Assembly: GCA_963771175.1 (NCBI GenBank)
Contig: CAVYSY010000045.1
Location: 1-64,000, forward strand
Reading direction: 5' to 3'
Origin: an uncultured delta proteobacterium
Lineage (GTDB): Bacteria > Myxococcota > Myxococcia > Myxococcales > Myxococcaceae
DNA length: 64,000 nucleotides
Positions 1-63,852 of this stretch are shown here, in pieces (within the stretch, counting starts at the first letter, position 1; the number at the start of each line of letters is the position of its first letter). A model generated the notes under the pieces. That model was given only the letters and a program-made list of their open reading frames with translations, did no database searches and had not been told where the DNA came from. The translations under genes were made by a program, and so were the position numbers.

Positions 1-4130
<4,130 letters not shown>

Positions 4131-8274: not shown

Positions 8275-8275
8275 A

Positions 8276-10439: not shown

Positions 10440-10448
10440 GGAGAGGCC

Positions 10449-11246: not shown

Positions 11247-11250
11247 AGCG

Positions 11251-25229: not shown

Positions 25230-25286
25230 GTCAATGAATTCTGGAGAGTCGTAGCTATTGACCCTTGCCGAGTTGTCGACCATTGT
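25230..25286 (+). promoter_or_regulatory. Putative sigma70-like promoter with an overlapping inverted repeat, upstream of the kinase-lyase-PLP-ATP-grasp operon
   Basis: AT-richer intergenic DNA; TTGACC (25258)-17 bp-CATTGT (25281); inverted repeat GTCAAT (25230)-N21-ATTGAC (25257). Confidence 0.4.
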
Positions 25287-25333
25287 GCGCCGCCAACATG
25301 GGGACCGGCCTGGATTGGGCGGCGCAGCGGCTT

Positions 25334-28771: not shown

Positions 28772-28781
28772 TTCCATTCCC

Positions 28782-29906: not shown

Positions 29907-29910
29907 GCGG

Positions 29911-31164
29911 GTGAGTCATTTCGTCTTCGTCGAGAGCAACACCACCGGGACGGGGCGGCTGGCGGTGGAGCGCCTGCTGGCCCAGGGCGAACGGGTGACG
30001 TTCATCACCCGGCAGCCGGAGAAGTACCCGTTCCTCGTGGGCAACACGGCCCCCCACCTGCGGGTGTTGCGTGTGGAGACCAACGACGCGGCGGCGGTGG
30101 AGGCCAGCGTCGAGATGCTGGCGAGCGAGGGGCGCGTGGATGCGCTGCTCACCTTCTCCACGTTCTACGTGCCCACGGTGGCGGCCGTCGCGGCGCGGCG
30201 TGGCCTGCGCTACCTCCATCCGCGCGCGGCTTATGCGTGTCACCACAAGCACGAGGCGCGCACCCTGCTGCGCGCGGCGGGGCTGCCCGGGCCGGACTTC
30301 CACGTTCTCTCCTCCGAGGCGGAGGCGGAGCGGTTGGCTGGAACGCTGCGCTTCCCGTGCGTCGTGAAGCCACCCGCGGAGAGTGGTAGCACCGGGGTGC
30401 GGAGGGTGGAGACGCCCGAGGAGCTGCTGGCACACTTCCGCGCCCTGCACTCGCGCGCCGTCAACGAGCGCGGCCAGCCCTTGCTGGGGGAGGTGCTGGT
30501 GGAGTCCCTGCTGGAGGGGCCGGAGTTCAGCGTGGAGACGATGACGCTGGCGGATGGCACCACCCACGTCCTCGGCATCACCCAGAAATACCTCTCCGCG
30601 CCGCCGCACTTCGTGGAGATGGGGCATGACTTCCCGGCGGACTTGTCCCCCGAGCGGCGGCGCGCGCTGGAGGAGGCCGTGCTCGCGGGCCTCGGGGCGG
30701 TGGGCTTTGACTTCGGCCCGGCCCACACGGAGATCCGCTTCACCCCCTCCGGCCCCGTCATCATCGAGATCAACCCCCGGTTGGCTGGTGGAATGATCCC
30801 GGAGCTGGTGCGGCTGTCCACCGGAGTGGATCTGCTCACCGCGATGCTGGACCAGCTCCTGGGGCGGCCGGTGGACCTCACGCACACGCGCCAGGAGGTG
30901 GCCTGTATCCGCTTCCTCACCTCGGAGCGCCCCGGCGTGCTGGCCCGCGTGGCGGGGCTGGAAGAGGCCTCCCGGCTGGAGACGGTCCGCCAGGTGGCCG
31001 TGGACAAGGCCGCGGGGGCCCGACTCCGCTCGCCCGAGAGCGCGACGGATCGGCTGGGTTTTGTCATCGCCAGCGGACCGGAGCGTGAGCAGGTTCTCGG
31101 GGATGCGGCGCGGGCCCTCGGCCTGCTCCGGGTGGAGCTGGCCTCCGCCGAGGGGGGGTCGTGA
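29911..31164 (+). CDS. ATP-grasp amino-acid ligase
   Basis: FVESNTTGTG, FPCVVKP...GSTGVR, LVESLLEGPEFSVE, HTEIR and IIEINPRLAGG. Confidence 0.92.
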   Translation: MSHFVFVESNTTGTGRLAVERLLAQGERVTFITRQPEKYPFLVGNTAPHLRVLRVETNDAAAVEASVEMLASEGRVDALLTFSTFYVPTVAAVAARRGLRYLHPRAAYACHHKHEARTLLRAAGLPGPDFHVLSSEAEAERLAGTLRFPCVVKPPAESGSTGVRRVETPEELLAHFRALHSRAVNERGQPLLGEVLVESLLEGPEFSVETMTLADGTTHVLGITQKYLSAPPHFVEMGHDFPADLSPERRRALEEAVLAGLGAVGFDFGPAHTEIRFTPSGPVIIEINPRLAGGMIPELVRLSTGVDLLTAMLDQLLGRPVDLTHTRQEVACIRFLTSERPGVLARVAGLEEASRLETVRQVAVDKAAGARLRSPESATDRLGFVIASGPEREQVLGDAARALGLLRVELASAEGGS

Positions 31165-33810: not shown

Positions 33811-35649
33811 TCAGTCCACGCGCCAGCGCATCCAGCGGGACAGGCCCACGAAGCTGGCCAGTGTCACCACGGCCAGCACCGCGAGGTCCAGCGCGAAGCG
33901 GGCATCCACGGTGCCATCCAGCGCCCGGCGCAGCGCGTCCGCCGCGTAGGTGGGGGGCAGCAGCATCCCGAGTGCCCGCAGGGGCGGGGGCAGCGCCTCC
34001 GCGGGGATGAACACGGGCGCGGCCAGCAGCAGCAGGGAGATGAGGGCATTGGTGACGACCACGAGCAGGTCCAGGTCTCGGATGAGCGAGCCCAGCACCA
34101 GACCTGCTCCGCAGAAGGACAACGCGCTGAGCGGGACGAGCACCAGCAGCCAGGGGCTCAGCTCCAGCCGGATGCCGTGCAGCAGCCAGCCGGCGAGCAG
34201 CGGGGTGACGACCCCGGGGAAGATGATGAACACGCGGGAGAGGACGAGGGAGGCGACGAAGGAGGCCTGGCTGATGGGCAGAGCGGCGTAATAGATGAGC
34301 CGCCCGTCCTTGCGCATCATCCCGATGCGCTGCGCGCAGGTGAGGAGCCCCTCGGTGGCCACCGCGAACACCGCTGCCCCGCTGACGATGTAGAGCAGGC
34401 TCATCCGGTCGCTCAGGCCCAGGCCGATGCGCGACAGCCCGAACACCATCGCCACCGGCATGAAGAGGGAGAAGACGGCGTTCCAGGCCCAGGTGTGCCG
34501 CACCTCCAGCATGTGCTCGAACCACAGGTACTTGAGCGCCACCAGCTCGCGCCGCAGGCGGCTCGGGCCGGGCGAGGGGCTCTCCTCGATGCTCGGGACT
34601 GGTGGCAGTGCTGGGGCCTCCTCGCACGCGCCGCGGTCCAGATCCAGATACACCTCTTCCAGGGAAGGAGGGGCGAGTCGGAGATCCTCCACCCGTTGCA
34701 ACCCCAGCGCCTGGAGGATCTCGGCGCTGGCCTGCCCGGCGCGCTGGGGCTCCAGGTAGGTGCGATAGTGCCCCTCGCGGATCTCGGTGACCTGACCATG
34801 GCCGCGCAGCCGCTCCAACTCCCAGTCCTCCAGCCGCACGCCCTCCTTGAGCTGCAGCTCCAGCCGCACGTGGCCGCCCGCGCGCTGCTTGATGTCCTGG
34901 GGCGTCCCGAGTGCGATGATGCGCCCCCGGTCCATCACCGCCACGCGGTGGATGACCCGCTCGGCCTCCAGCACGTTGTGGGTGACGAGCAGGCAGGTGA
35001 GGCCCTGCTCCCGGTTGAGCTGATCCAGGGTGTCCCAGACGAGGCGCCGCTTGTGCGGATCCAACTCGTTGGTGGGCTCGTCGAGGATGAGCAGCCGGGG
35101 GTTTCCCATGAGTGCCATGCCGAAGCCGACCAGCCGCGACATGCCGCCACTGAGGTGGTTGACGTACCGCCGCCGGAAGTCGCCCAGGCCGAGCATGTCG
35201 ATGAGCTGGCGGGTCTGCGCGCGCGCGTCATGCTCGCTCTGGCCCCTCAGCCGTCCGGTGTAGTGCAGCGCGCGCTCCACCTCCACGTAGTGGAGCGCCA
35301 GCTCGCCCTGGGGCAGGAAGCCGATCAGCTCCTTCACCGCGTCCGGCTGGCGAACGACGTCCACGTGCTCGACCTGGAGGTGGCCCGAGGTGGGGCGCAT
35401 GAGCCCCATGAGCTGCATGACGAGCGTCGTCTTCCCGGCGCCGTTGGGCCCCAGCAGCCCGAAGATCTCTCCGCGGTGGATGTCGAAGGAGAGCCGATCG
35501 TTGGCGACCACTGGCGGCTCGCCGGGAAACGTACGGACCAGCTCCCGCACCGCCACCGCCACGCGAGGGGTCACTGCGGGCGCCAGGGGGGCGAGGGGCT
35601 CGGCGGGGGGGGCAACAAGGAGTAGGGGCTGCCCGGGAGTGGAGTTCAC
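33811..35649 (-). CDS. ABC exporter: ATPase fused to an ABC-2-type permease
   Basis: GPNGAGKTT, LSGGM, ILDEP and THN, followed by a 6-TM domain with APVFIP...LPP...PPTYA. Confidence 0.88.
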   Translation of the reverse strand: MNSTPGQPLLLVAPPAEPLAPLAPAVTPRVAVAVRELVRTFPGEPPVVANDRLSFDIHRGEIFGLLGPNGAGKTTLVMQLMGLMRPTSGHLQVEHVDVVRQPDAVKELIGFLPQGELALHYVEVERALHYTGRLRGQSEHDARAQTRQLIDMLGLGDFRRRYVNHLSGGMSRLVGFGMALMGNPRLLILDEPTNELDPHKRRLVWDTLDQLNREQGLTCLLVTHNVLEAERVIHRVAVMDRGRIIALGTPQDIKQRAGGHVRLELQLKEGVRLEDWELERLRGHGQVTEIREGHYRTYLEPQRAGQASAEILQALGLQRVEDLRLAPPSLEEVYLDLDRGACEEAPALPPVPSIEESPSPGPSRLRRELVALKYLWFEHMLEVRHTWAWNAVFSLFMPVAMVFGLSRIGLGLSDRMSLLYIVSGAAVFAVATEGLLTCAQRIGMMRKDGRLIYYAALPISQASFVASLVLSRVFIIFPGVVTPLLAGWLLHGIRLELSPWLLVLVPLSALSFCGAGLVLGSLIRDLDLLVVVTNALISLLLLAAPVFIPAEALPPPLRALGMLLPPTYAADALRRALDGTVDARFALDLAVLAVVTLASFVGLSRWMRWRVD

Positions 35650-37940
35650 AGCTCCTCCGTCTGCGTGATGACCGTGGTGTCGGTGAAGCCGAAGCCATAC
35701 GGGGCCGCCATGAGGGTGGAGGGCCGCCGCTGGGACTCAGGGAGGGTGGGGATGCCCAGGGAGACGGCGCTGGCGCGCACGCGCACCGGGCCTCCCCCCC
35801 GCACCCTCAGGAAGAAGGGGAGCCCTTCCGGCGGGGGCTGCCAATAGTCGAGGTGGAGCCCCGCCCCCGCGGCGAGCACCGCGCCCGGCACTGGGGAGCC
35901 ACCCACCCGGGCCTCGAGGAGCTCCATCGGCGGCAGATCCAACTGGAGCAGCGCCGCGCCAGGGGGGACCTCCACCCGGAGGGTGAGGACGCGCACCTCG
36001 CCCTCCCGGCGCTCCTCGAGCAGGAGGGTGCGAGCCGGAGACAGCGGCAGCAGAGGCGCCTCGCGGTAGAGCACCTCCGTCTCCAGCCAGGGCAGGGCCT
36101 CGTCGAAGCGTCGCGCCGAGGGAGCCGTGCCGAGGAACTGCTCCGCCCACTGGCCATGGGTGGCCTCGTGGGACAGCCAGAAGGCCCGGCGCCCATCCCC
36201 GTCCAGCCAGTAGGCGATGCTCTCGGGCCAGGGGCGGGACGCCGAGGGGCTCGCCGCCAGCGCCCCGGCCACCAACAGCACCCCTCCGGCCGCCATCGCC
36301 CCGGCTGCCAGGGCGTGCCAGCGCTCGCGGATGAGCCACGCCAGGGCGGGAGCTAGCAGCCCGAGCACCAGGGAAGCGAGGAGCAGGCCCACGCCCGCCA
36401 GCGAGAGCCCGAGTGCCGAGAGGAGCGGGTACAGGGTGGAGGTGACCAGCATCAGCAGGGGCGCCCCACCCGCGGCGAGCACCAGCCCCGCCGCCCATGG
36501 GCGCTCGCCCACGCGGCGCAGGGCGAGGTGCGTCAGCCAGGCCAGGAGCAGGGGCCACGCGAAGAGATAGCTTGCCCCGGGGAGGAGCACGGCGGTGGCC
36601 ACCGCGAGCGCGGCCCATGGCAGCCGTGCCCCGTGCCCCCACTCCTCCTCCTGCACGCGCGCCTGCCCCCAGCGCCGGGCCAGCGTGAAGGGCACGAGCG
36701 CCAGGGCGAGGAGGCCGGCCTGGAAGGGCGCCGGTGTGTGGGCATCTCCCTGGGCGAAGGCCTCCAACCCGGTGGCGTTCTGCGTGGCGCGCCACGCCAG
36801 GGTGACGAGCACCGCCGCGGCCAGGGCGCTCAGCACCGTTCCCACCACCGCCAGGGCCAGCCCCCGGATCCTGAGCCGCCCGGCGCGCACCGCGCCCACC
36901 AGGGTGAGCACCTCGAGCACCAGCAGCAGCACCGCGAGCGGAATGGCCCATGCCCGGGGGTACGCGACGAGCCAGTCTCCCACCGGGTTGAAGTAGACGA
37001 GCCCCTGGGCCTCTCGAGGCGGCGTCTCCCCGTCCGCGAGCGCGCGCGTGAGGGCCAGCAGGTTCTCGCCATGGTGCTGGAGGCTGCCGTCGTCGAGCTG
37101 CTCCGGCGTGTCCAGCCACGTGTGGTAGTGGATGAGCCCCTCGATGAAGGCGAAGTTCATCCCCGCCAGGCCCGCCTGGCGGAAGATGGACAGGTCGGTG
37201 TCGGCCGACAGGTAGGGGTAGAGCTCTCCCGCGAGCGAGTTGCCCATCGGGTGGGGGGCCACCTCCCTGAACCGCTGGATGAGCCAGCCCTGGGGCCCGG
37301 TCGTCTCGAAGAGGAGGGAGGGCCCGCGCGTGCCACGGGCCTCGAAGTTGAGGGTGACCGCCACCTTCGCGAAGAGCGGGTGCTGGAGGAAGCCCTCGGC
37401 GCCGAGCAGCCCCGCCTCTTCCGCGTCCGTGAACAGAAAGAGGACGTCGTGTCGTGGTGGCGGCTCGGTGCGCAGGGCCCGCAGGGCCTCCAGCATGGCC
37501 GCGACCGCGGCGCCGTTGTCCGCGGCGCCGGGGCCGCTGGGGACCGAGTCGTAGTGCCCCACCACCAGCACGGCGTGGTGGCCCTCGGTGCCCGGCAGGC
37601 GCGCGAGGACGTTGTGCACGGTGGCTGCCACCACGGCGCCAGGGGCCCCCTGCGCCCGGAGGAGCTCGGTGGTCTGTACCTCGGGGGACACACCCAGCTC
37701 GGTCAGGCGCGCGAGCAGCTCCCGCCGCACCTCGGCCAGGCGCGCCGAGCCCACCGGCCGGGGCTGCGCCGTGAGCCAGGCGAGGTGCTGGCGCGCGCGC
37801 GCCGCCGAGAACGCGCCCACGGGCGCAGCTCCTCCCAGGGCGGCAGGCGGACGGTGGGTGGCGAGCGCGAGCACGACCGCCGCGGCCAGCAGGAAGGCCA
37901 GGCCGAGGCGTGGTGCGAGTTCGGGCGGGAGCCGGCTCAT
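35646..37940 (-). CDS. M28-family membrane-bound metallopeptidase (ERMP1-like architecture)
   Basis: GHYDSV, GAADNG, DAEEAGLLG, NFEARG and YHT Zn-site motifs, followed by a multi-TM region. Confidence 0.88.
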   Translation of the reverse strand: MSRLPPELAPRLGLAFLLAAAVVLALATHRPPAALGGAAPVGAFSAARARQHLAWLTAQPRPVGSARLAEVRRELLARLTELGVSPEVQTTELLRAQGAPGAVVAATVHNVLARLPGTEGHHAVLVVGHYDSVPSGPGAADNGAAVAAMLEALRALRTEPPPRHDVLFLFTDAEEAGLLGAEGFLQHPLFAKVAVTLNFEARGTRGPSLLFETTGPQGWLIQRFREVAPHPMGNSLAGELYPYLSADTDLSIFRQAGLAGMNFAFIEGLIHYHTWLDTPEQLDDGSLQHHGENLLALTRALADGETPPREAQGLVYFNPVGDWLVAYPRAWAIPLAVLLLVLEVLTLVGAVRAGRLRIRGLALAVVGTVLSALAAAVLVTLAWRATQNATGLEAFAQGDAHTPAPFQAGLLALALVPFTLARRWGQARVQEEEWGHGARLPWAALAVATAVLLPGASYLFAWPLLLAWLTHLALRRVGERPWAAGLVLAAGGAPLLMLVTSTLYPLLSALGLSLAGVGLLLASLVLGLLAPALAWLIRERWHALAAGAMAAGGVLLVAGALAASPSASRPWPESIAYWLDGDGRRAFWLSHEATHGQWAEQFLGTAPSARRFDEALPWLETEVLYREAPLLPLSPARTLLLEERREGEVRVLTLRVEVPPGAALLQLDLPPMELLEARVGGSPVPGAVLAAGAGLHLDYWQPPPEGLPFFLRVRGGGPVRVRASAVSLGIPTLPESQRRPSTLMAAPYGFGFTDTTVITQTEEL

Positions 37941-37956: not shown

Positions 37957-38871
37957 TCAGGCCGCCACCGCGAGGCGGGGTTCCTCCACCACCTCGGCCT
38001 GCGTGGCGGGCCGCGCCCAGACGATGAAGAGGGCGGGGTAGAGCAGGAAGAGGTGCCAGAACGAGATGTTCATCGTGAGGCCAACTCCCATGTGGAACAT
38101 CATGGACATGGCCCCCAGCCAGCGTGGGAAGCGCCCCAGCACCAGTCCCAGGGGAAGGAAGCCGAACTCGAAGATCCCGGCGAACAGTGTGGAGGCGGTG
38201 AAGAACCAGGGGAAGCGGGTGAGCTCCCGGCCAATCCACCCCCCTGTCTCCAGCGTCTGGATGAACGGGGTCTGCCCGAGCACGAACCAGTCCAGGCCGC
38301 CGGAGAGCAGCTTGGCCAGCCCGGCCTGGAAGTAGAAGACCGCGATGAAGAGCTGCATCGCGCCCATGGCGAACGAGGCCCGCTGCTGCTCGGCGAGCGG
38401 GTCCACCGGGGGGCGCGTCCGCCCCAGCCTCGCATCGAGCGAGAGGGCCTGTCCGCAGGGGAAGAGGCAGAGCGCGAGCAGGAAGAAGTTCAGGTAGGTG
38501 TTGTAGGCCCACGTCGGCCGGGTGAAGCAGGCGACGTAGTAGTTCCATGCGGTGAAGAGGGTGCCGAACAGCACCGCCGAGGGGCGCGTGGCCAGCCCGA
38601 GGGTGAAGAGCACCCCGGTGAGGATGATGGCTGCCTCGAGCACCCACAGCCCCGTACGCCCCAGCGGCGGGAAGAACGAGAAGAGCGGGCTCGGGCGGTA
38701 CAGCAGATCCGCGGTGTCGATCAGGAACTGGCTGTACGGCTCCAGCAGCACGTAGGCGATGCAGATGAGCCCCACTGAGATGCGCATGAGGGCCAGCCGA
38801 CGCAGGGGCTCGGGCTGCTCGAAGAGGAGGCGGTACAAATGGGTCTCGAGCTGGCGGAGTCGGGCCATCAT
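37957..38871 (-). CDS. HTTM-domain / vitamin-K-dependent gamma-carboxylase-like (SdpB-like) membrane protein
   Basis: LALMRISVG, LFTLGLATR, QALSLDA, YFQAGLAKL...W, FEFGF and FHMGVGLTMNISF pattern. Confidence 0.75.
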   Translation of the reverse strand: MMARLRQLETHLYRLLFEQPEPLRRLALMRISVGLICIAYVLLEPYSQFLIDTADLLYRPSPLFSFFPPLGRTGLWVLEAAIILTGVLFTLGLATRPSAVLFGTLFTAWNYYVACFTRPTWAYNTYLNFFLLALCLFPCGQALSLDARLGRTRPPVDPLAEQQRASFAMGAMQLFIAVFYFQAGLAKLLSGGLDWFVLGQTPFIQTLETGGWIGRELTRFPWFFTASTLFAGIFEFGFLPLGLVLGRFPRWLGAMSMMFHMGVGLTMNISFWHLFLLYPALFIVWARPATQAEVVEEPRLAVAA

Positions 38872-39410
38872 TGGGGGCGGGGCTCGGAGTAGGAGTAGAA
38901 GGGCACGCTCTTCAGGGGCTCGAGCGGGGAGCCGTACTGGTAGAGGGTGTAGTCGAGGGTGTCGGCGGTGAGCTCGAAGCCCACGAAGCGCGCTCCGGGC
39001 GCGGGCCGCAGCGGCAGGGCGAACTCATCGAAGTCCCGCCACGGCTCGCCGTTCACCCACTGGAGGATGAGCGGCGAGAAGCGCTCGCGCACTCCCGTGA
39101 GGTCGCCATCCGGCAGGTAGATGCGGTGCATCAGGTCCATGGCCAGCCAGTAGTCCATCGGGACGACGTTCCAGGGATCTCCGGTGACGCGGCGGCCCGT
39201 GTCCTCGATGAGGTGGACCTTCATCACCTCCTGCTGCAAGGGGGTGACGTGTTTGAAGAACGAGTGGTCGGCGAAGGGCCAGTTGGAGTGCTGCAGCACG
39301 GCGGTGTGGAAGAGCTGGATGCCCAGCAGCGCCGTGAGCACACCCGCCAGGAGGCGCTTGTGCGTGGGGGAGAGCCCGGCCCCTGAGTGGTTTCGAGGGG
39401 CGCCGCTCAT
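38868..39410 (-). CDS. Hypothetical membrane-anchored protein, probable partner of the HTTM protein
   Basis: One N-terminal TM, then NWPFADHSFF; 4-bp overlaps with both neighbours. Confidence 0.7.
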   Translation of the reverse strand: MSGAPRNHSGAGLSPTHKRLLAGVLTALLGIQLFHTAVLQHSNWPFADHSFFKHVTPLQQEVMKVHLIEDTGRRVTGDPWNVVPMDYWLAMDLMHRIYLPDGDLTGVRERFSPLILQWVNGEPWRDFDEFALPLRPAPGARFVGFELTADTLDYTLYQYGSPLEPLKSVPFYSYSEPRPQ

Positions 39411-42400
39411 GCCACGCTCTCCTGGCCGGGGGCCACCGGCGCCGCCGCGAGCCGCTTCTCCAGGCCCAGGATGGTGCGCTCGCGGAACAGGTCGCGCAGC
39501 GCGAGGTTCGCCTGGAAGGCCTCGTTGATGCGCGCCATCAGCCGGATGGCGTGGATGGAGTGCCCGCCCAGCTCGAAGAAGTCATCGGTGACGCCCACGG
39601 AGGGCAGCCCGAGCACGTCACACCAGAGCGCCGCCAGCCGCTCCTGGACGGGGCCCTGGGGAGGCACCGCGCGTTCCGGCTCGCGGGGGCCGAGCGGCAG
39701 CTCCGGCAGCGCACGCTCGTCCACCTTGCCGCTCGGCGTGAGGGGAAGGGCCGACAGGAACCGGAAGTGCTCCGGCACCATGTAGTCCGGCAGGCTGTCG
39801 CGCAGCTCCTGCCTCAGCGTGCGTGCCTCCACGGGGCGCCAGAGGTACTCCGCCGCGGGCGCGTGCGGGTGCTCCATCCAGACGCTCGGATCGTAGTACT
39901 CCCCCATGCCTGCCTCCAGGTCGATGTGCACTGGCCGCAGCGTGTCCCGGACGACGTAGTCGCCGCTGGCCGGGAACGTCCGCCCGGCCCAACGCTGCCA
40001 GTCCTCCACGCTCGCCTCTATCCGCTGCGAGCGGGGCTCCACGCGCAGCACGCGCGCGCCCATCCGTTCGTGGGTCCGCAGCCACCGGTCGTCCAGCTGG
40101 CCGTCCTCGCGCCGGCGCAGGCAGTACTCCTCGACGCTCTCCTCCGGGCGCGCGGTCTTGTCCACCGGCCGTACTGGTGCCACCAGGCGCTCCAGCCCCT
40201 GGGCATGGGCCAGGTGCTTCATCGCCTTCAAGAGGAAGGAGCTCAGGCCTTGGCCGTGGGCGTTCGTGCTCACCACCGCGGCGAGCAGCATCAGGGTGTC
40301 GGGGTGCTCGCCGCGCGAGGCACCCGCGAAGGCCCGCTCGATCGCGTCGTCCCACCCGCGCGGCAGCGTTTCCAGCGTGCCATTCCAGGAGAAGGGGAGG
40401 GCATTGCCGACGCCCACCAGGGTGTCCTTCTCGTCGAGCACGGCGAGCTGGTACTCGGGGAACTCGGCGCTCAGGCGCGGCCAGAAGGTGCGCATCGCGC
40501 AGTTGCCCAGGAAGTACTCGGGCCAGCTCTCCGCGTGCAGCGTGTCCGCGGCGCGCCGCAGCTCGGGGCGCTGGGACAGGGTGAAGAGCCGGTAGTGCCG
40601 GTCGTCGCCCAGCCGCACGAAGCGCTCGTGCAGCTCCAGGTACGCCACGAGCGTGTCGCCGCCGCCGGGGGCCTGCTGGTGGCGCACGAGGCACCTGTCT
40701 ACCGCCGGGTGCGCGGCCAGCCGGCCCTCCACTTCCTCCAGCTCCACGCGGTTGCCGCGGATCTTCACCTGCTTGTCCACGCGCGCCACGTAGTGGAGCT
40801 GTCCGTCCTCGGAGTAGCGCCCCAGGTCACCCGTGCGGTAGAGCCGCGCGCCCGGCACCGCCGAGTACGGGTCAGGGACGAACTGGAGCGCGGTGCGGAC
40901 CGGATCCTCGGCATAACCCCGCGCCAGACCCGGGGAGCTGATGAACAGCTCGCCCTTGACCCCGGGCGGCACCAGCCGGAGCGCCGTGTCGAGCACCAGC
41001 GCCCGGGTGTTGTCCAGGGGTCTGCCGATGGGCACCAGCTCCGTGGAGACGGGTGCGGCGCAGGGGAAGCGGGTGGCGTCCACCGTCACCTCGGTGGGGC
41101 CGTAATGGTTGGCCAACCGGCAGGGCAGGGCGGCCAGCGCGCGATCTCGTAGCTCCCGGGTGAGGTAGGCGCCGCCGCAGATGAGGAGCCGGAGGGAAGG
41201 TAGCGGGGGCAGCTCCCCGGCGAGCTGGGCCTGAATGAGCGCATCCAGCATGAGCGGCACCGTTTGGAAGGCCGTCACCTGATGGCGGGCGACCCGCGCC
41301 GCGATGCGGGCCGGATCCTTGTTCTCGCCCGGCTGAGGCAGGACGACGCGCGCCCCGAAGGCGAGCGGCCAGAAGAAGTCCAGCACGGAGGCATCGAAGT
41401 CCACGGGGGTGATGAAGAGCACCGTGTCCCCGGCCTTCAGGCCGTACTCGCGCTGGGTGGAGTCGATGAGGTTGTGCACGCCCAGGTGGGAGATCTCGAT
41501 TCCCTTGGGCGTGCCGGTGGTGCCGGAGGTGTAGAGGACGTAGGCGAGCTGCTCCGCCAGGACGCGCATCGGGGCGCCCGTGGGCAACGCGGAGACCTCG
41601 GCCCCGTGCTCCTCCATCCGGAAGACGCCCGGGCGATCCCTCAGGGCTGGCGCCTGGAGGGAGCCATGGGTGAGCACGGTGCGCACGCCCGCCTGCGTGA
41701 GCACGTGCTCGTGGCGCTCGGCGGGGTGGTCCGGGTTGAGGGGCACGTAGGCCGCGCCGGCCTTGAGGATGGCCAGCAGCGCGATCCCCAGATCCAGCGA
41801 GGGCTCGAGCAGCACCGCCACCCGCTCCTCGGGGCGCATCCCGCGGGCGAGCAGCCAGCGCGCCCACCGGTCCGAGGCCTCGTCCAGGGCCCGGTAGGTC
41901 AGGGTGCCGGAGTCGTGCTCGAGCGCCACCGCGTCCGGGGTGGCACGAGCCTGCGCGGACAGGCGCGCGGTGAGACCCTCCTGCTGCTCGAAGGCGTGGG
42001 TGGGGCCGGACAGCTCGCGCAGCCAGCGCGTCTCGGCCTCGGCGGTCAGCAGCCGGTAGTCCGCCAGGGGCTTGCCGGGGGCGCGTGCCGTCTCGGCGGC
42101 CAGGGAGAAGAACTGCTCCAGCATCCGCTCCACGCTCTCTCGCCGGAACAGGTCGCTGTTGTAGTTGAGGCTGACGATGGTGTCGTTGCCGAACTGCTCC
42201 ACGATGAAGGTCAGATCGAAGCGCGCGTTCTGGAACTCAGGCGTGGCCATGTTGGTGAGGTAGCGCAGCTCCAGCCCCTCGAAGCGCAGCTCCGAGGCCA
42301 GCTTCGTCTTGTTGTTCTGGACGCCGTACATCACCGAGAACAGCCGGTTGCGTGACAAGTCCATCTGGGGGTTGACCTCCTGGATGGAGAGCACGCTCGG

Positions 42401-45400
42401 GTACAGGTGATGATCGAAGCCCTGGAGCGCCGTCTCGCGGGTCTGCTCCAGGAGCTGCTGGAAGGTGAGCCCGGGGGAGATGCGGCAGCGCATGGGGAGC
42501 GCGGTGGCGAACAGGCCGAGCACGGGCTCCAGGGACTCGTCGGCGCGGTTGGCGATGGGGGTGCCGATGGCGAAGTCGGACTGGTTCGTCAGGCGGTGGA
42601 GCTGGAGGTTGAGCACCGCCAGCAGGTAGAGGAATGGGGTGAGGTTGTTGGCGGCCAGGAAGGGGTCCACCGCCGCGCGCACGTCCTCCGGCATCACCCG
42701 CGTCAGGGTGTCCCCGCGGAAGGTCTGAAGGGCGGGCCGGGGAAAGTCCGTGGGGAGGTCCAGCGCTGGGGGCACGGGGGTGAGCTGGCGCACCCAGTAC
42801 TGGCGCTGGTCCTCCAGCAGGCCGCCCTGGATGGCGGAGTTGAGCCAGCGCGTGTAGTCCAGGTAGTCGATGGGGAGCGCGGGCAGCACCGGCTCGCTGC
42901 CGGTGTGGTAGGCGCGGTACAGCGCGCTCAGCTCGCGCGCCATGCTCATCGTCGACGTCTCGTCCCAGAGGATGTGGTGGGTGGCGAAGACGAACTGGAA
43001 GCGCTTGCCCGGGAACTCCGCCAGCTTCACGCGGAACAGCGGCGGGCGCTTGAGGTCGAACGGGGCGTTGCTCTGCTCGTCCACCAGGCGTCGGATCTCC
43101 TCCTCCACCCGCTCGGGGGGCACGTCGCGGCGATCGATGTAGATGTCCTTCTGGGAGATCTCCAGCCGCGGCAGCACCCGGTGCACGGGGCGCCCGTCCT
43201 CGTAGGCGAACCAGGTCCGGAAGACCGTGTGCCGGTCGAAGAGCGTCTGCCAGGCGCGCGTGAAGGCCTCCAGGTCCACGTCTCCGACGAGCTGCACGTC
43301 GCCGACGGTGACGTTGTAGAGCGCGCTGCCGGGGTTCAGCTCATACATGTACCACTCGGGCAGCTGCAGGGCCGCGAGCGGGTAGGACTCCTGGGCGGGC
43401 AGCTTCACCAGCGGGTGGCGGTGGAGCAGCGGGGCAGCGCCCTCACCAGCGGTCGCGCCTTCGCCCCCGCGCGGCTTCTGTTCGAGGTACCGGGCCAGCT
43501 CCTCCACCGTCTGGTAGTCGAAGAACTCGCGGATGGACAGCTCGATGCCGAGGCTCTTGCGCAGCCGGGAGATGATCTGGATGGCGACGAGAGAGTGACC
43601 GCCCAGGTCGAAGAAGTTGTCGTGCACCCCCACCCGCGGCATGCCCAGCAGCTCCCGCCACTGGGTGGCCACCTCGGCCTCCAGGGGAGTGCGCGGCTCA
43701 TCCCCCTCGCCGGACTCCTGGGCCTGGAACTCCTCCGGGGAGGGCAGGGCCTTGCGATCCACCTTGCCGTTGTGGGTCAGCGGCAGGGTCTCCATCACCA
43801 CGAAGGCCGAGGGCACCATCGCCGCGGTGAGCTGCTCCTTGAGGAAGTCGGCCAGCGCCTTGGGCGTCGGCTTCGCGCCGGACTCCTTGGGCGCCACGTA
43901 CGCCACCAGCCGCTTGCCCTGGCCCCCGTCCTGCCGGGCCACCACCACGCACATCCCCACCTCGGGGTGCCGCCGCAGCGCCGATTCGATCTCTCCCAGC
44001 TCGATGCGGATGCCGCGGATCTTCACCTGGTGATCGTTGCGGCCCAGGAACTCGATCGTCCCGTCCGCCAGGTAGCGCACGAGGTCTCCCGTGCGGTACA
44101 TGCGCTCGCCCGGGGTGGAGGAGAAGGGGTTGGGCACGTAGACGCCCGCCGTCTTGGCCGGGTCTCCCAGGTAGCCGCGGCCCACGCCCACGCCGCCGAC
44201 GCACAGCTCCCCGGGCACGCCCAGCGGCACCGGCCGCAGCCACTCGTCCAGCACGTAGATCTGGAGGTTGGGCAGCGTGCCGTTGATGGGCATCCACGGC
44301 TGTTGCTGGGACGGCGCCTGGAACATCTTGTAGTGCGTCACGTCGTCCGAGCACTCGGTGGGCCCGTAGGCGTTCACCATGGGGATGTGCGGGTAGAGCT
44401 GGAACCACCGCACGCACATCTCCGCCGGCAGCGCCTCACCATTGAGGAAGAACCAGCGCAGCGCCGACAGGTCGTACTGCCCCCGGCGCGTCTCCAGCTC
44501 CTCCAGGATGAGCTTCATGTGGGCCGGCACCGTCTCCAACACCGTGACGTGCTGGCGCGCCATCTCCTTCATCAGCCGTTCCGGCTCCCAGGCGCTCTCG
44601 TCCTGGAAGACGGCCGTGCACCCGCCGCACAGCAGCGCCGCCAGGAACTGCCACACCGACACATCGAAGCTCTGCACCGCCACCTGGGCCACCACATCCC
44701 GCGGGCTCAGCTGAAGGTCGAACACCTTGGCCAGCAGGTGGTTCTTCATCCCCCGGTGCTCGATCATGGCGCCCTTGGGCAGACCCGTGGAGCCCGAGGT
44801 GAAGAGCACGTACGCCAGGCTCTTGGGCTGCACGTGGTGCTCGGGGTTGTGCCGCGGGTGCTCCTCCTCCTGTACCTGCTCCAGCGTCAGCACCGGCCGC
44901 CCCGCCGCCACCTCCTGGGCCAGCGACGTGTGTTTCTGCTCGCTGAGCACCAGCATGCACCCGCTCTGCTCCACCAGTCCCGCCAGTCGCTGCGCCGGCA
45001 GTGCCGGATCCAACGGCAGGTAGACCGCGTCCGCCTTGAGCACTCCCAGCAGGCTCGCCAGGTAGCCCTCGCCCCGGTCCTGCACCACCCCCACCACCCG
45101 CTCCAGCCCCGCACCTCGCGCCCTCAGCGCGTGCGCCACCTGGTTGGCCCAGGCGTTGAGCTGCTGGTAGCTCAGCGCCCGCTCCTGGCACACCACCGCC
45201 ACCGCGTCCGGCGTGCGCTCCACCTGCTCCTCGAACAGCTCGCAGAACAGCGAGGGTCCCTCTGCTTCCGGGCGCCTCGTCCGGTTCCACTCCTCCACCA
45301 CCCGCCGCCGCTCCGCCTCGCCCACCACCGGCAGCTCCCACAGCCGAGCCTCGGGGCGCGCCACCGCTCCGGCCAGCAGCACCTGGTAGTGCTCCATCAT

Positions 45401-46759
45401 CCGCTCGATGGTGCTCGGGTCGAAAAGGTCCGTGTTGTACTCGGCGATGGCGGACAGCCCGTCTGGGGTCTCGCTCATCCCCACGACGAGGTCGAACTTC
45501 GCCGTGCCGGTCTCCAGATCCTCGGGGCTGAGCTTGAGCCCGGGGAGCTCCACCTTGGGGGCGGGTGCATTCTGAAGCTCGAAGAAGACCTGGAAGAGGG
45601 GCGTGCGCGTCAGGTCCCGCTCCGGCTGCACCGCCTCCACCACCCGGTCGAATGGCGCCTCCTGGTGCGTATACGCCTCCAGCGTCACCTTCCGCACCCG
45701 CTCCAGCAGCTCGCTGAAACGCGGGTTGCCACCCACCTGCGTGCGCAGCGCCAGCGTGTTGATGAAGAAGCCGATCAGCTCCTCGATCTCCGCCCGGCCG
45801 CGGTTGGCCACGGAAGTGCCCACGACGATGTCTTGCTGCCGGGTGTAGCGGGCCAGCAGCGCGTTGAAGCCAGTCAGCAGCGTCATGAACAGCGTGGCGC
45901 CCTGCTTGCGGCTCAGTGCCTTCAAGCCCTCCATCAGCTCACGGGAGAGGGAGAACCTGTACAGCGCTCCGCGGGCGCCCTGCATGGGCCCGCGCGGCCG
46001 GTCCGTCTTCAGGTCCAGTGGCTCCACGCCCACGAGCTGCTGCTTCCAGTACTCCAGGTGCTTGTCCAGCACCTCGCCCTGGAGCCACTGCCGCTGCCAC
46101 AGGGTGTAGTCCACGTACTGCACCTTCAGCGCACCCAGCGGCGACGGCTGCCCCGCGCTGAAGGCCGCGTACAGCGTCCCCAGCTCCTTGAAGAACACGC
46201 CCACCGACCACCCATCCGACACGATGTGGTGCATGGTGAACAGCAGCACGTGCTCGGTGGGCTCCAGCTTGAGCAGCTGGGCCCTCACCAGCGGCCCCTT
46301 GCTGAGATCAAACGGCCTGCGCGCCTCCTCGCCGCCCAGGCGCTGGACCTCCGTGGCCCGCGCCCCCGGCTCCAGTGCGCTGAGGTCCAGCACCGCCAGC
46401 GGCAGGAGCACCGGCTCGCCGATGCGCTGCACCGGCAGGCCCTCTTCCTGCTCGAACGTGGTGCGCAGCACCTCGTGTCGCGCGACGATCTCCCCCAAGC
46501 TGCGCTCCAGCGCGGCCACGTCCAGCCGTCCGCTGAGCCGCAGCGCTCCCGGCACGTTGTACAGTGCGCTGCCCGGCTCCAGCTGATCCAGCACCCATAG
46601 GCGCTGCTGACCGAACGAGAGGGGAAAGCTCTTCTTCCGCTTCTTCTTCTTGGGAGGCGGGACCGCGGCGGAACTCGCCTCGGGGGCGATGGGATCCGCT
46701 TCATCATGAGTGGGACTGCCGCGTCGCTGCGCCTCGCCTCCAGCCTTGGGCTGACTCAT
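39407..46759 (-). CDS. Two-module NRPS C-A(diamino acid-like)-PCP-C(atypical)-A[GNAT insertion]-PCP
   Basis: Intact ORF. C1 has [10 protein letters not shown]1 has FDVSVWQ and AYGPTECSDD, then PCP GGHS. C2 has HHILWDETS. A2 has FDASVLD and HYGPTEVTVD, with a ~260-aa insert between A8 and A9. Final PCP GGHSIH; no TE. Confidence 0.95.
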   Translation of the reverse strand: MSQPKAGGEAQRRGSPTHDEADPIAPEASSAAVPPPKKKKRKKSFPLSFGQQRLWVLDQLEPGSALYNVPGALRLSGRLDVAALERSLGEIVARHEVLRTTFEQEEGLPVQRIGEPVLLPLAVLDLSALEPGARATEVQRLGGEEARRPFDLSKGPLVRAQLLKLEPTEHVLLFTMHHIVSDGWSVGVFFKELGTLYAAFSAGQPSPLGALKVQYVDYTLWQRQWLQGEVLDKHLEYWKQQLVGVEPLDLKTDRPRGPMQGARGALYRFSLSRELMEGLKALSRKQGATLFMTLLTGFNALLARYTRQQDIVVGTSVANRGRAEIEELIGFFINTLALRTQVGGNPRFSELLERVRKVTLEAYTHQEAPFDRVVEAVQPERDLTRTPLFQVFFELQNAPAPKVELPGLKLSPEDLETGTAKFDLVVGMSETPDGLSAIAEYNTDLFDPSTIERMMEHYQVLLAGAVARPEARLWELPVVGEAERRRVVEEWNRTRRPEAEGPSLFCELFEEQVERTPDAVAVVCQERALSYQQLNAWANQVAHALRARGAGLERVVGVVQDRGEGYLASLLGVLKADAVYLPLDPALPAQRLAGLVEQSGCMLVLSEQKHTSLAQEVAAGRPVLTLEQVQEEEHPRHNPEHHVQPKSLAYVLFTSGSTGLPKGAMIEHRGMKNHLLAKVFDLQLSPRDVVAQVAVQSFDVSVWQFLAALLCGGCTAVFQDESAWEPERLMKEMARQHVTVLETVPAHMKLILEELETRRGQYDLSALRWFFLNGEALPAEMCVRWFQLYPHIPMVNAYGPTECSDDVTHYKMFQAPSQQQPWMPINGTLPNLQIYVLDEWLRPVPLGVPGELCVGGVGVGRGYLGDPAKTAGVYVPNPFSSTPGERMYRTGDLVRYLADGTIEFLGRNDHQVKIRGIRIELGEIESALRRHPEVGMCVVVARQDGGQGKRLVAYVAPKESGAKPTPKALADFLKEQLTAAMVPSAFVVMETLPLTHNGKVDRKALPSPEEFQAQESGEGDEPRTPLEAEVATQWRELLGMPRVGVHDNFFDLGGHSLVAIQIISRLRKSLGIELSIREFFDYQTVEELARYLEQKPRGGEGATAGEGAAPLLHRHPLVKLPAQESYPLAALQLPEWYMYELNPGSALYNVTVGDVQLVGDVDLEAFTRAWQTLFDRHTVFRTWFAYEDGRPVHRVLPRLEISQKDIYIDRRDVPPERVEEEIRRLVDEQSNAPFDLKRPPLFRVKLAEFPGKRFQFVFATHHILWDETSTMSMARELSALYRAYHTGSEPVLPALPIDYLDYTRWLNSAIQGGLLEDQRQYWVRQLTPVPPALDLPTDFPRPALQTFRGDTLTRVMPEDVRAAVDPFLAANNLTPFLYLLAVLNLQLHRLTNQSDFAIGTPIANRADESLEPVLGLFATALPMRCRISPGLTFQQLLEQTRETALQGFDHHLYPSVLSIQEVNPQMDLSRNRLFSVMYGVQNNKTKLASELRFEGLELRYLTNMATPEFQNARFDLTFIVEQFGNDTIVSLNYNSDLFRRESVERMLEQFFSLAAETARAPGKPLADYRLLTAEAETRWLRELSGPTHAFEQQEGLTARLSAQARATPDAVALEHDSGTLTYRALDEASDRWARWLLARGMRPEERVAVLLEPSLDLGIALLAILKAGAAYVPLNPDHPAERHEHVLTQAGVRTVLTHGSLQAPALRDRPGVFRMEEHGAEVSALPTGAPMRVLAEQLAYVLYTSGTTGTPKGIEISHLGVHNLIDSTQREYGLKAGDTVLFITPVDFDASVLDFFWPLAFGARVVLPQPGENKDPARIAARVARHQVTAFQTVPLMLDALIQAQLAGELPPLPSLRLLICGGAYLTRELRDRALAALPCRLANHYGPTEVTVDATRFPCAAPVSTELVPIGRPLDNTRALVLDTALRLVPPGVKGELFISSPGLARGYAEDPVRTALQFVPDPYSAVPGARLYRTGDLGRYSEDGQLHYVARVDKQVKIRGNRVELEEVEGRLAAHPAVDRCLVRHQQAPGGGDTLVAYLELHERFVRLGDDRHYRLFTLSQRPELRRAADTLHAESWPEYFLGNCAMRTFWPRLSAEFPEYQLAVLDEKDTLVGVGNALPFSWNGTLETLPRGWDDAIERAFAGASRGEHPDTLMLLAAVVSTNAHGQGLSSFLLKAMKHLAHAQGLERLVAPVRPVDKTARPEESVEEYCLRRREDGQLDDRWLRTHERMGARVLRVEPRSQRIEASVEDWQRWAGRTFPASGDYVVRDTLRPVHIDLEAGMGEYYDPSVWMEHPHAPAAEYLWRPVEARTLRQELRDSLPDYMVPEHFRFLSALPLTPSGKVDERALPELPLGPREPERAVPPQGPVQERLAALWCDVLGLPSVGVTDDFFELGGHSIHAIRLMARINEAFQANLALRDLFRERTILGLEKRLAAAPVAPGQESVA
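43743..46609 (-). repeat. ~2.87-kb C-A module duplication, inverted relative to 58763-61626
   Basis: Protein and DNA are near-identical from [21 protein letters not shown] to [10 protein letters not shown], with a few divergent patches. Confidence 0.92.
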
Positions 46760-46941
46760 TTCGGGGCGGCATACTCGGTGCTCATCCCAGGACAGGTCAA
46801 CGAACATTCACGAGGCTGGCCTGTTTCTCTAGAAATCTAGTATAGGCGGGGTTCGCAGGTATGCGCGTCCTACGCCCCTCGGAGTGGCCTAGGGGGGGAT
46901 TGCTGCTCACTTGGGTGTTCCTGCTCACCGCCATCGTCGAC
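46760..46941. promoter_or_regulatory. Divergent promoter region between the two NRPS operons
   Basis: Short intergenic region between head-to-head genes; AT-rich core tttctctagaaatctagtata (46824-46844) containing TTTCT-N2-AGAAA. Confidence 0.6.
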
Positions 46942-49900
46942 ATGACTTCTGCTCGAATTGTCTCGTCTCCGCCGCCCGGTGTCCTCACGTTGGTCGATCT
47001 CGCTCGAGTCCGCGCCGAGCGGACCCCGGAGCAGACGCTCTACCTCTTCCTGGAGGAGGGCGGCTGGGAGGAGCAGCGCATCACCTTTGGGGAGTTCGAT
47101 CGGCGGGCGCGAGCCATCGCCAGCCGCCTTCAGGCGTTGGGGGCCGAGGGTGAGCGCGCGGTCCTCCTGTTCGCTCCCGGGGTGGACTACATCTGCACGT
47201 TCTTTGGGTGCCTCTACGCGGGAGTGATCGCTGTTCCGGCCTATCCGCCGGATCCGGCGCGCCTGGGCCGCAGCCTGCCCCGCCTGCAGGCCATCGCCAC
47301 GGATGCCAGGGCCCGGTTCGTCCTCACCACCTCCTTTATCGCCTCCATGGCCGAGTCGGTGTTCGAGCTCGCGCCGGAGCTGCGGGCCATGCACTGGCTG
47401 GCCACGGACGAGCTGGAGCACCAGGATGCGGACGCGTGGCGGGCGCCGGGGATCCGCCCGGAGGGGCTGGCGTTCCTCCAGTACACCTCCGGCTCCACGG
47501 GGATGCCCAAGGGGGTGCGGCTGAGCCATGGGAACCTGCTCCACAACCTGGAGCTGATCGCTCGGGCCTTCGAGACCTCGGAGGAGTCGAAGGGCGTCAT
47601 CTGGCTGCCGCCCTACCATGACATGGGGCTGATCGGTGGACTGCTCCAGCCGCTCTACCGGGGCTTCCAGGCGGTGATGATGTCGCCGCTGGATTTCCTG
47701 TCCCGCCCGCTGCGCTGGCTGCAGGCCCTCTCGCGCTACGGCGGGACGGTGAGCGGCGGGCCGAACTTCGCGTTCGACCTGTGCGTGCGCAAGAGCACGC
47801 CCGAGGAGCGCGCGGCGCTGGATCTGCGCTCCTGGCGGGTGGCGTTCAGCGGCGCGGAGCCCATCCGCCCGGAGACCATGGATCGCTTCTGCGAGGCGTT
47901 CGCGGTGGCGGGCTTCCGCCGCGAGGCTTTCTATCCCTGTTATGGGCTGGCGGAGGCGACGCTGCTGGTCTCCGGTGGCGAACCCAGCGAGCCGCCCCTG
48001 CTCGAGAGCTTCGACGCCGCGGCCCTGGAGCGCGGGCAGGTGGAGCGTCGGGCGGAGGGCGGCCGGGCCCTGGTGAGTTGCGGCCGGACCCGCGAGGGGC
48101 TGGAGGTGCTCATCGTCGATCCCGAGCAGCGCACCCGCTGCGCGCCGGGGCGGATCGGCGAGCTCTGGGTCGCGGGCGGGAGCGTGGCGGGGGGCTACTG
48201 GGACAGGCCCGAGGAGACGGAGCGCCAGTTCCAAGCCCGGCTGGCGGATGGGAGCGGCCCCTACCTGCGCACGGGGGATCTGGGCTTCTTCCAGGGCCCG
48301 GAGCTGTTCATCGCGGGGCGGCTGAAGGACCTGCTCATCATCCGTGGCCGCAATCACTATCCGCAGGATCTCGAGTACACCGTGGAGCGCAGCCATCCGG
48401 CGCTGCGTCCGGGGTGCTGCGCGGCCTTCTCGGTGGAGGTGGAGGGAGAGGAGCGGCTGGTGGTGGCGCAGGAGGTGGATCTGCGCAAGGCGCCCGATCT
48501 GGAGGAGGTGGGGGCGGCCATTCGCCGGGCCGTGCAAGAGGCCCATGAGCTGCATGTGCATGTCGCCGTGCTCCTGAAGCCGGGCACCATTCCCAAGACG
48601 ACGAGCGGGAAGATCCAGCGCCACGCGTCGCGCCGCGGCTTCCTCGAGGGCACGCTGGACGAGGTGGGCCGCAGCCAGGTCCACGCGGGACCCTCCCAGG
48701 AGGAGCCGCCCGCCGTCGAGGCCGCACAGGTGCTCGCCGCCACGGGGGCCGAGCGCACGGCGCTCCTCACCGCGTACCTCCAGACCCTGCTGTCGCGGGT
48801 GCTCGGGGGCTCGGGGGCCCGCGTCGACCCGGAGCGTCCCGTCCTGGAGCTGGGGCTCGACTCCCTCATGGCGCTGGAGGTGATCCATGTGCTGGAGCGC
48901 GAGCTGGGCGTGAGGCTGTCCTTGAAGGCGCTGCTCGAGGAAGTCTCGCCCCGCCAGCTCGCGGAGCGGCTCGCTGCCGCCGTCACCTCTCCGGCGCCGA
49001 TCGCCCCCCCGCCTGGGGCCGGCACGCGCACGGTGTCCCATGGGCAGGAGGCACTCTGGTTCCTTCACCAGGTAGCCCCCGAGAGCGCCGCCTACAACCT
49101 CTTCAGCGCGGTGCGCATCCGCTCCACTGTCGACGTCGAGGCCCTGCGCGCCGCGTTCGAGGCGCTCTCCCGGCGCCACCCGGTGCTGCGGACCCTCTAT
49201 CCGGTGCGCGACGGCGCGCCCACGGCTCAGGTGCTCGACGGGCCTGTGGACTTCGAGCGGGTCGAGGCCTCGGGTCTGGACGACATGGCGCTGCGGGCGC
49301 TCGTCTCGGATGAGGCGCACCGGCCGTTCGATCTCGGCCGTGGACCGGTCTTCCGGGTGCGGCTGTACGCACTCACGGACGAAGAGAGCGTGCTGCTGCT
49401 CGCGGTGCACCACATCGCCGCGGACCTCTGGTCCCTGATGGTGTTGCTGTCCGAGCTGCGCCAGCTCTATCCCGCGGCCCGTGAGCGGCGAGCGCTGGAG
49501 CTGCCAGCTCCGCTGGCGAGCTACGCGGACCATGTCCGCTGGCAGGAGGCGCTCCTGGAGGGTGAGGAGGGGGAGCGCCAGCGGACGTATTGGCGCACGC
49601 GGCTCTCGGGCGAGCTGCCGGTGCTCTCGCTGCCATTGGATGGCCCGCGGCCTCCGGTGCTGGGGACGTCCGGCGCGGCCCACCGCTTCCGGCTGGAGCC
49701 GAAGCTCGCGTCCCGGCTGAGGGCGCTGGCGCGTGAGGAGGGCACGACCCTCTTCACGGTCCTGCTCGCCGCCTTCCAAGTGCTGCTGTCCCGGTTGAGC
49801 GGGCAGCAGGAGGTGCTCGTCGGCAGCCCGGTGGCGGGCCGGAGCCTGGAGCGGTTCGGCTCCGTGGTGGGGTACTTCGTCAACCCGCTGGTGCTGCGCG

Positions 49901-52292: not shown

Positions 52293-52296
<4 letters not shown>
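46942..52296 (+). CDS. Lipopeptide-initiating NRPS FAAL-ACP-C-A-PCP
   Basis: FAAL motifs FLQYTSGSTG, WLPPYHDMGLIG, CYGLAEATL and PKTTSGKIQR. ACP LGLDSL. C HHIAADLWS. A FDASTFE and VYGPTENAVF. PCP GGHS. Confidence 0.95.
50242..52067 (+). repeat. Direct repeat (offset 3320; copy at 53562-55387), purine-rich, interrupted by a non-shared specificity subdomain (50941-51390)
   Basis: 50242-50940 matches 53562-54260 and 51391-52067 matches 54711-55387 almost base for base. Confidence 0.92.
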
Positions 52297-61987
<9,691 letters not shown>

Positions 61988-63495: not shown

Positions 63496-63603
63496 GGCAG
63501 GGGAGCTCAATGGCAGCACATACTACCAGGGCACCTGCGGTAGAGTCTCAACCCCGAATCCTGGCCATGCGCTGCATGGCCCACCCCACACAGGAGTCGC
63601 ATC

Positions 63604-63828
63604 ATGGCTACGAACGAGAATGAGGATACGACTGGCTACAAGGTCGTGGTGAACCACGAGGAGCAGTACTCCCTCTGGTCGGCCGATCGCGAGAACGCGC
63701 TCGGCTGGAAGGATGCCGGCAAGCAGGGCACCAAGGCCGAGTGCCTGGACTACATCAAGCAGGTCTGGACGGACATGCGCCCCCTGAGCCTGCGCAAGAA
63801 GATGGAAGGACAGTCGCACCGCAACTGA
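63604..63828 (+). CDS. mbtH: MbtH-like protein
   Basis: VVVNHEEQYSLW, GW and CLDYIKQVWTDMRPLSLR; AGGAG RBS. Confidence 0.97.
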   Translation: MATNENEDTTGYKVVVNHEEQYSLWSADRENALGWKDAGKQGTKAECLDYIKQVWTDMRPLSLRKKMEGQSHRN

Positions 63829-63852
63829 AGCCTTTCGAGAGCAATATCCCCC

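Follow-up and report, generated by a model that had tools for sequence, protein, structure and literature searches.

A predicted split GGCX/MloH-like enzyme and a GNAT-like domain within the terminal adenylation domain in a myxobacterial lipopeptide cluster

MloH is an HTTM enzyme of the polyketide synthase (PKS)/non-ribosomal peptide synthetase (NRPS) pathway to malonomycin, and is described as an HTTM region and a DUF5819-like region in one chain (Law et al. 2018, as cited in later work). It alpha-carboxylates an Asp residue (PMC12186529 and PMC12647623, in the parts available). The functions of bacterial HTTM proteins are largely open: MloH carboxylates, and the pairs of the linaridin and SDP systems have been linked to different maturation steps that are poorly understood. 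In this work we report on the first 64 kb of contig C45 of an uncultured myxobacterium (genome G000, 82% complete), a stretch designated the window, in which a 304-residue HTTM protein and a 180-residue membrane protein are encoded beside the terminal NRPS of a lipopeptide cluster. The split HTTM-partner architecture as such is already known, because the accessible part of a preprint reports the same arrangement for a DUF5819-HTTM pair resembling MloH, which has both regions in one chain (bioRxiv 10.64898/2026.08.19.745780). The new variant described here is a predicted MloH/GGCX-like pair, encoded by two genes of an NRPS operon, for which sister clusters naturally lacking the pair exist. The genes in question are the following.

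37957..38871, minus strand: HTTM membrane protein of 304 residues, the predicted catalytic half of a split GGCX/MloH-like enzyme (K187, W195, E235, H260, F271), from Pfam, the structural model, Foldseek, VIA and residue mapping

38868..39410, minus strand: single-pass membrane partner of 180 residues with a WPF loop, the predicted second subunit, from gene order, the predicted complex and natural fusions

39407..46807, minus strand: terminal NRPS of 2466 residues with the order C-A-T-C-A(GNAT)-T (C, condensation; A, adenylation; T, thiolation) and the codes DVWEFNADDK and DALQIGHVDK, from family scans and core-motif codes

39818..40633, minus strand: GNAT-like domain of about 270 residues between the A-domain motifs a8 (40774) and a9 (39793), from a Pfam match below cut-off, the CurA match, the model and Foldseek

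The NRPS gene and the 180-residue gene, and the latter and the HTTM gene, overlap as the initial annotation had described, in both cases by ATGA, and third-codon-position GC content is 0.93-0.94 in all three genes alike. The proposed assignment of the 304-residue protein to the HTTM family was borne out by a hidden Markov model search (Pfam PF05090, E 2.9e-8, 34.1 bits for a cut-off of 27.7). The neighbor, said to be membrane-anchored, has a single hydrophobic segment at residues 20-38, and reading the core motifs of the terminal A domain again gave the code DALQIGHVDK.

Structural comparison placed the HTTM protein with GGCX. In a Foldseek search with its model (predicted local distance difference test, pLDDT, of 94.7; 118-sequence alignment), ranks 1-16 were all GGCX (best E 7e-5; TM-score 0.55-0.60 by query). 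With VIA, GGCX scored Z 12.4 (root-mean-square deviation 4.2, 189 residues aligned), a value in the range under about 13 that can be common for helical proteins; the next chain scored Z 7.7, and GGCX was the sole chain above Z 8 among 48,161. A 45-sequence HTTM profile matched GGCX at E 7e-31. Single-sequence and narrow-profile searches of solved structures missed GGCX, and the broader profile succeeded. Alignment of the catalytic Lys and His to human GGCX (PDB 9BVK, 9L21, 9BUM and others) paired K187 with K218 and H260 with H287, and the profile alignment added W195 with W223, E235 with D263 (Asp to Glu) and F271 with F299. K187, W195 and H260 are kept in 118/118 relatives, F271 in 116/118 and E235 in 115/118. 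The membrane fold of GGCX is thus found together with equivalents of its quinol-activating and CO2-site residues K218, W223, D263 and F299. In GGCX, K218 is the base for the quinol, W223 supports it, F299 stacks CO2, and N159, H160 and Y395 bind the Glu substrate (PMC12647623, accessible part). In contrast, K217 of GGCX is Ala here and N159/H160 are Ala/Tyr; the pair totals 484 residues instead of 758, so that the lumenal part that binds the propeptide is for the most part unmatched.

The 180-residue protein had no Pfam or NCBIfam match. None of seven partner sequences matched a Pfam family of the DUF5819/SdpA type at E up to 5, and the nearest Atlas clusters are unnamed. Its gene lies upstream of the HTTM gene in all five relatives harboring a full-length HTTM of this subfamily (G266, G192, G248, G134 and G260). 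The predicted HTTM-partner complex scored 0.87 (best of three controls, 0.38), with contact agreement of at least 88% and partner pLDDT of at least 85 in the runs. The mark for this score was met by 116/157 solved pairs and 2/215 mismatched pairs, and a pass may stem from likeness to GGCX, since halves of a split gene can pass in that way. In the predicted complex, the WPF loop of the partner (44-56) contacts HTTM residues including 185-187, 194-195 and 268-272. A scan of 149 unnamed relatives plus P0170 revealed a strong partner-like region fused to HTTM in P0052, P0107, P0095 and P0067 (E 1e-26 to 3e-8), one HTTM-first and three partner-first. The partner helix and WPF loop showed a weak match to the tails of fused HTTM proteins (best E 3e-4, with reversed controls at 1.3 or worse) but none to the tails of canonical GGCX-like proteins (GGCX loop 393-404); judged by eye, W44 of the partner stands at the GGCX Y395 position. 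Profile-profile comparison of the partner with the fused tails gave no signal and was uninformative, since it gave none between the two fused-tail groups either. Because the two proteins are predicted to bind and partner-like regions occur fused to HTTM elsewhere, the 304-residue and 180-residue proteins look like one split two-subunit enzyme.

The pair resembles DUF5819+HTTM, SdpA/SdpB and LinL/LinG in having adjoining genes, a partner with a single N-terminal helix encoded upstream of the HTTM protein and, by prediction, a heterodimer. It differs from them in that Pfam did not match the partner to DUF5819 or SdpA, in that no DCC1 domain and no adjacent LinE was seen, and in its NRPS context in place of a ribosomal precursor. 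Unlike MloH as that protein is described, it is encoded by two genes, lies in a myxobacterial lipopeptide cluster and is optional across sister clusters.

The distribution of the pair was surveyed in 208 genomes of the family. A full-length HTTM of the subfamily, counted at E<1e-40, was present in 6/208 genomes and the GNAT insert, used as cluster marker, in 11/208; presence and absence counts exclude G281 and G254, whose contigs measure 5.0 and 17.9 kb, and the six full-length carriers do not include G203, which has an HTTM fragment. Five genomes had both, and in four of these the pair is inside the cluster, in two gene orders and with about 40% HTTM identity. The pair is located between the NRPS gene and a peptidase gene in G000 and G266 and elsewhere in a rearranged cluster in G192 and G248. 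In G148 and G134, the NRPS stop overlaps the peptidase start directly; G134 harbors a G192-type pair about 0.7 Mb from the cluster, among transposase genes. In G148, G265, G084 and G096, the HTTM proteins detected were all distant paralogues, none matching better than E 2e-22. In a tree of 15 terminal modules, the grouping (G266,(G000,(G148,G134))) was obtained with 100/100 support, and a long branch carried G192 and G248. Since this tree nests G148 and G134 within pair-bearing lineages, loss of the pair in both is the simplest reading. Clusters that contain the pair and clusters that lack it share the terminal code DALQIGHVDK. Assembly of the peptide is therefore independent of the pair, which fits late tailoring, and the pair is likely an optional late tailoring step on the lipopeptide. 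The near-identical clusters lacking the pair amount to a natural knockout, and comparison of extracts would reveal the chemistry of the pair.

Two other features of these clusters were noted. The G192 cluster contains a second, unrelated long HTTM-like gene (L005:8680-10224; 515 residues; Pfam E 0.003). The clusters of G265, G084 and G096 (L066, L068 and L070) are variants with an amidinotransferase-like gene.

The terminal A domain is interrupted after a8 by an entire additional domain, beyond which a9 and a10 follow undamaged, a feature absent from the initial annotation although it lies within the region described there. The insert matched Pfam Acetyltransf_1 below cut-off (E 0.0026), and CurA was its top sequence match (E 0.0023). 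With its model (pLDDT 87.9), Foldseek ranks 1-5 were CurA, SxtA and GphF, ahead of ordinary acetyltransferases; the CurA structure 2REF matched at E 5.6e-11 (TM-score 0.57 by query). Atlas groups the insert with stand-alone GNAT proteins, mostly actinobacterial (score 0.99). A search among proteins of lengths 1347-3845 recovered 10 NRPSs with the insert, from sources labeled Stigmatella, Hyalangium, Sorangium and Haliangium, among others. Each of the 10 combines a C domain of the HHIxWDE type with the lack of a thioesterase, as no GxSxG motif occurs within the final 400 residues, and two of them end in a GHMP kinase. In the window, the last C domain carries HHILWDE (motif at 42979). Insertion between a8 and a9 is shared with the interrupted A domains described to date (M, Ox, KR, MOx; PMC8341866, PMC11355689), from which this one differs by its GNAT-like inserted domain. 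Literature searches found no report of a GNAT insertion in an A domain (subscription journals lay outside the search), and the words GNAT and acetyltransferase are absent from the main texts of PMC8341866 and PMC11355689 (supplements lay outside the check). The GNAT-interrupted terminal module is apparently unreported; it extends NRPS grammar by one type of domain and may provide a way of releasing the chain without a thioesterase. Pfam annotation overlooks the insert, as it falls below cut-off, and the products of such clusters are probably mispredicted.

The closest folds, CurA, SxtA and GphF, are GNAT-like decarboxylases of PKS loading modules. The Arg and His of the CurA R387/H389 motif have equivalents in 11/11 inserts, the catalytic His being H188, which is His2246 of the NRPS. 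In contrast to CurA, Val (V154 here) occupies the Thr355 position in 11/11 inserts, as judged from sequence alignment, and the domain belongs to the final module of an NRPS rather than to the start of a PKS. Decarboxylation by the GNAT-like domain is unlikely because the catalytic Thr is replaced by Val, and the substitution T355V cripples CurA (PMC3701320, accessible part). Decarboxylation of the product of the pair by this domain was considered and rejected, given the same Val and the persistence of the domain in pair-less clusters. GNATs that transfer a carrier-protein-bound acyl group onto an amine are described in the available part of PMC11685415 (SbzI, FeeM). By analogy, the likeliest role of the GNAT-like domain would be release or acylation of the T-bound chain, standing in for a thioesterase.

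Code extraction passed over the terminal A domains of P0161, P0165, G134 and G281. Eight of the insert-bearing NRPSs gave terminal codes: DALQIGHVDK in six, DPLQLGHVDK and DPLQIGHIDK. A related code, DAVQIGHVDK, agrees at 8/10 positions with DAVQMGCVDK, which is listed for Gln- and Asn-activating domains (PMC12283262, accessible part); the supplement of that paper contained none of the code fragments, and no paper came up when the literature was searched for DALQIGHVDK, DAVQIGHVDK and DVWEFNADDK as exact codes. The earlier view of the code as Gln/Glu-like holds in the broader form Gln/Glu/Asn-like, Glu being inseparable here from Gln or Asn. Regarding the terminal NRPS itself, GGQS replaces the GGHS of the last T domain in G192 (L005 16818 to L006) and G248 (L043-L041), and in G265, G084 and G096 the protein extends about 360-380 residues past the last T domain, where the related P0164 and P0166 have a GHMP kinase.

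Taken together, the two proteins quite probably form a split enzyme of GGCX fold whose substrate is this peptide. For its chemistry we tentatively place first an MloH-type alpha-carboxylation of the last residue of the lipopeptide, outside the inner membrane, by the pair as an optional late tailoring enzyme; this reading is ranked first because an N-acylated last residue with a free carboxylate offers a site like that of MloH. The terminal module would load a residue of the Gln/Glu/Asn type, and the GNAT-like domain would release or acylate the T-bound chain, replacing the missing thioesterase. The substrate may be the released peptide, after export and perhaps after trimming by the M28 peptidase encoded next in the operon. 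The active site would face the periplasm, as suggested by the lumenal site of GGCX and the single N-terminal helix of the partner; there, menaquinol and O2 may generate a strong base attacking at a carbon that would adjoin the free carboxylate. The scheme in full, in which the HHIxWDE C domain and the GNAT-interrupted A domain release the chain without thioesterase and the split carboxylase then makes an alpha-substituted aminomalonate from the last residue in the periplasm, is unlikely to hold in all its parts. In support of a menaquinol-dependent step, MenD was above cut-off in 5/5 genomes tested; the futalosine route to menaquinone was searched for and not found.

Several observations weigh against alpha-carboxylation. 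MenB was not above cut-off in G000 (82% complete), no thioesterase follows the last T domain, which bears on whether a free C-terminal acid forms, and the upstream NRPS is broken in the window assembly (55700-57700). The clusters of G148 and G134 lack the pair although their NRPS is 82% identical to that of the window. The G260 pair (35% identical) is beside a locus resembling those of peptides made on the ribosome and modified after translation (RiPPs), with no such NRPS, and the putative 36-residue precursor encoded there lacks both Asp and Glu throughout its final 19 residues; in this locus (L045:524-8390), the pair is divergent from the 36-residue open reading frame, two ThiF genes, HlyD and an ABC-type transporter gene. 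The Lys, Trp and His run through all 118 relatives, so that carboxylation is not told from other base chemistry. Finally, the residues binding the substrate carboxylate in GGCX, Asn159/His160, align to Ala122/Tyr123, positions at which the family has Asn in 51/118 and Tyr in 67/118, an assignment made at the level of aligned sequences. A shifted register puts T125/Y126 at N159/H160, likewise without His in this copy; the subfamily reads W-N-Y-N-T-H-L in this stretch. Tyr126, which is His in 90/118 relatives, was also considered as a lost His160; this was rejected, since it aligns to GGCX Tyr162/Leu163, and it is not counted as damage.

The absence of the Asn/His pair would suit a reaction of the linaridin type, in which the same fold takes the alpha proton and then epimerises (L to D) or eliminates (e.g. 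diaminobutyrate or Thr to dehydrobutyrine), with no CO2 added. CypH/CypL yield D-residues, and the NRPSs of this cluster consist of C-A-T modules only, with no epimerisation domain; the RiPP-like surroundings of the G260 pair point in the same direction. LinE, the membrane protein LinG, and LinH or LinL are tied to dehydrobutyrine formation as candidates (bioRxiv 10.1101/2020.07.09.196543, accessible part). Opposed to this are the lack of a LinE-type hydrolase beside the pair in the window or in G266 and the retention of the CO2-stacking Phe299 equivalent in 116/118 relatives. MloH, to our knowledge the one characterised HTTM enzyme of an NRPS pathway, carboxylates. We consider a linaridin-type reaction somewhat unlikely, but it ranks only a little below alpha-carboxylation. 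The initial annotation had proposed that the last module loads Glu and that the pair gamma-carboxylates it as GGCX does. What stands of this proposal is a two-gene enzyme of GGCX/MloH fold tied to a lipopeptide cluster, with quinol-site residues and a terminal code resembling Gln/Glu codes. The gamma-carboxyglutamate product is not supported: Asn159/His160 are not kept, though canonical GGCX-like proteins of the same bacterial family keep both (L028, L034 'NYLNHY'), the nearest listed code belongs to Gln and Asn, and the code is identical in pair-less clusters. We regard this product as very doubtful.

Other quinone-linked or hydrolytic chemistry, or help in maturation or self-protection with the M28 peptidase and the exporter, in the manner of SdpAB, would account for the presence of both of the latter genes in the operon of the pair and for the second HTTM gene of the G192 cluster. 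This is improbable, as the catalytic residues are strictly kept and the peptidase persists in pair-less clusters, indicating that it does not need the pair. Less probable still is a mere passenger role, with no action of the pair on this lipopeptide. Such a role is suggested by its absence from the clusters of G148, G134, G265, G084 and G096, its occurrence without the cluster in G260 and its position away from the cluster in G134. Against it stand the ATGA coupling to the NRPS gene in the window and in G266, the retention of the pair inside the rearranged G192 and G248 clusters and the tree, which indicates loss in G148 and G134. The GNAT-A cluster was also found in 5/6 HTTM carriers and in 6 of the other 202 genomes, kin not being independent.

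The remaining genes of the cluster are listed below.

35646..37940, minus strand: membrane-bound M28 peptidase, the next gene of the operon (Pfam PF04389, E 1e-45; seven hydrophobic segments)

33811..35649, minus strand: fused ABC-2-type exporter, ATPase plus membrane domain (Pfam ABC_tran and ABC2_membrane)

46861..52296, plus strand: FAAL-T-C-A-T starter NRPS with a fatty acyl start and an aliphatic-residue-like code, DAFLLGVVFK (family scans, codes)

52293..61987, plus strand: three-module NRPS with a Val-like code, then diamino-acid-like codes; whole (3228 residues) in G148 and G134 (family scans, orthologues)

25265..31164, plus strand: genes for a GHMP kinase-YbaK protein, an argininosuccinate-lyase-like protein, an SbnA-like pyridoxal-phosphate enzyme and an ATP-grasp protein (Pfam, NCBIfam)

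61991..62749, plus strand: 252-residue protein without a known family; conserved counterparts occur in the G266, G248 and G192 clusters, the last with two copies (family scans, comparison)

Homologues of the M28 peptidase are present in the clusters of G266, G192, G248, G148, G134 and G254. The three-module NRPS gene is in four pieces in the window, compared with one protein of 3228 residues in G148, and NRPS/PKS genes at 1-25000 are likewise fragmented; assembly error rather than real decay is likely. From the whole orthologues of G148, the module order is fatty acyl, aliphatic residue, Val-like, three DVWEFNADDK modules and the terminal module. From its resemblance to diaminobutyrate (Dab) codes, we take DVWEFNADDK to be a diamino-acid-like code, and the cassette at 25265..31164 is presumably a supply of 2,3-diaminobutyrate or diaminopropionate, as in Dab cassettes. 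A literature search on myxobacterial lipopeptides with such features, covering titles and the beginnings of abstracts, gave no paper on this cluster and no named product.

The 252-residue protein has invariant R-x-Y-x-G-H-E and YYWxPGA motifs and is present in all four pair-bearing clusters, with no match in the G148 or G134 cluster stretches. Given the same presence pattern, it may work with the HTTM/partner pair. A DUF5916/CBM9-like gene of 879 residues (31161-33800) follows the distribution of the pair in that it occurs in the window and in G266 but is missing from the cluster stretches of G148 and G134.

Inspection by eye of the remainder of the window revealed, at 62695-63519 (minus strand), a gene resembling a stand-alone GNAT gene that borders the G266 cluster, a possible self-resistance acetyltransferase. 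At 63523-64000, MbtH-like and metallo-beta-lactamase-fold hydroxylase-like genes (labels by eye), common to G148 and G134, probably belong to a neighboring PKS/NRPS cluster. Genes resembling sulfate adenylyltransferase subunits, a TauE-like exporter and an APS kinase, also labeled by eye, lie at 8240-11844 beside fragmented NRPS/PKS genes and could serve a sulfated product of a second cluster.

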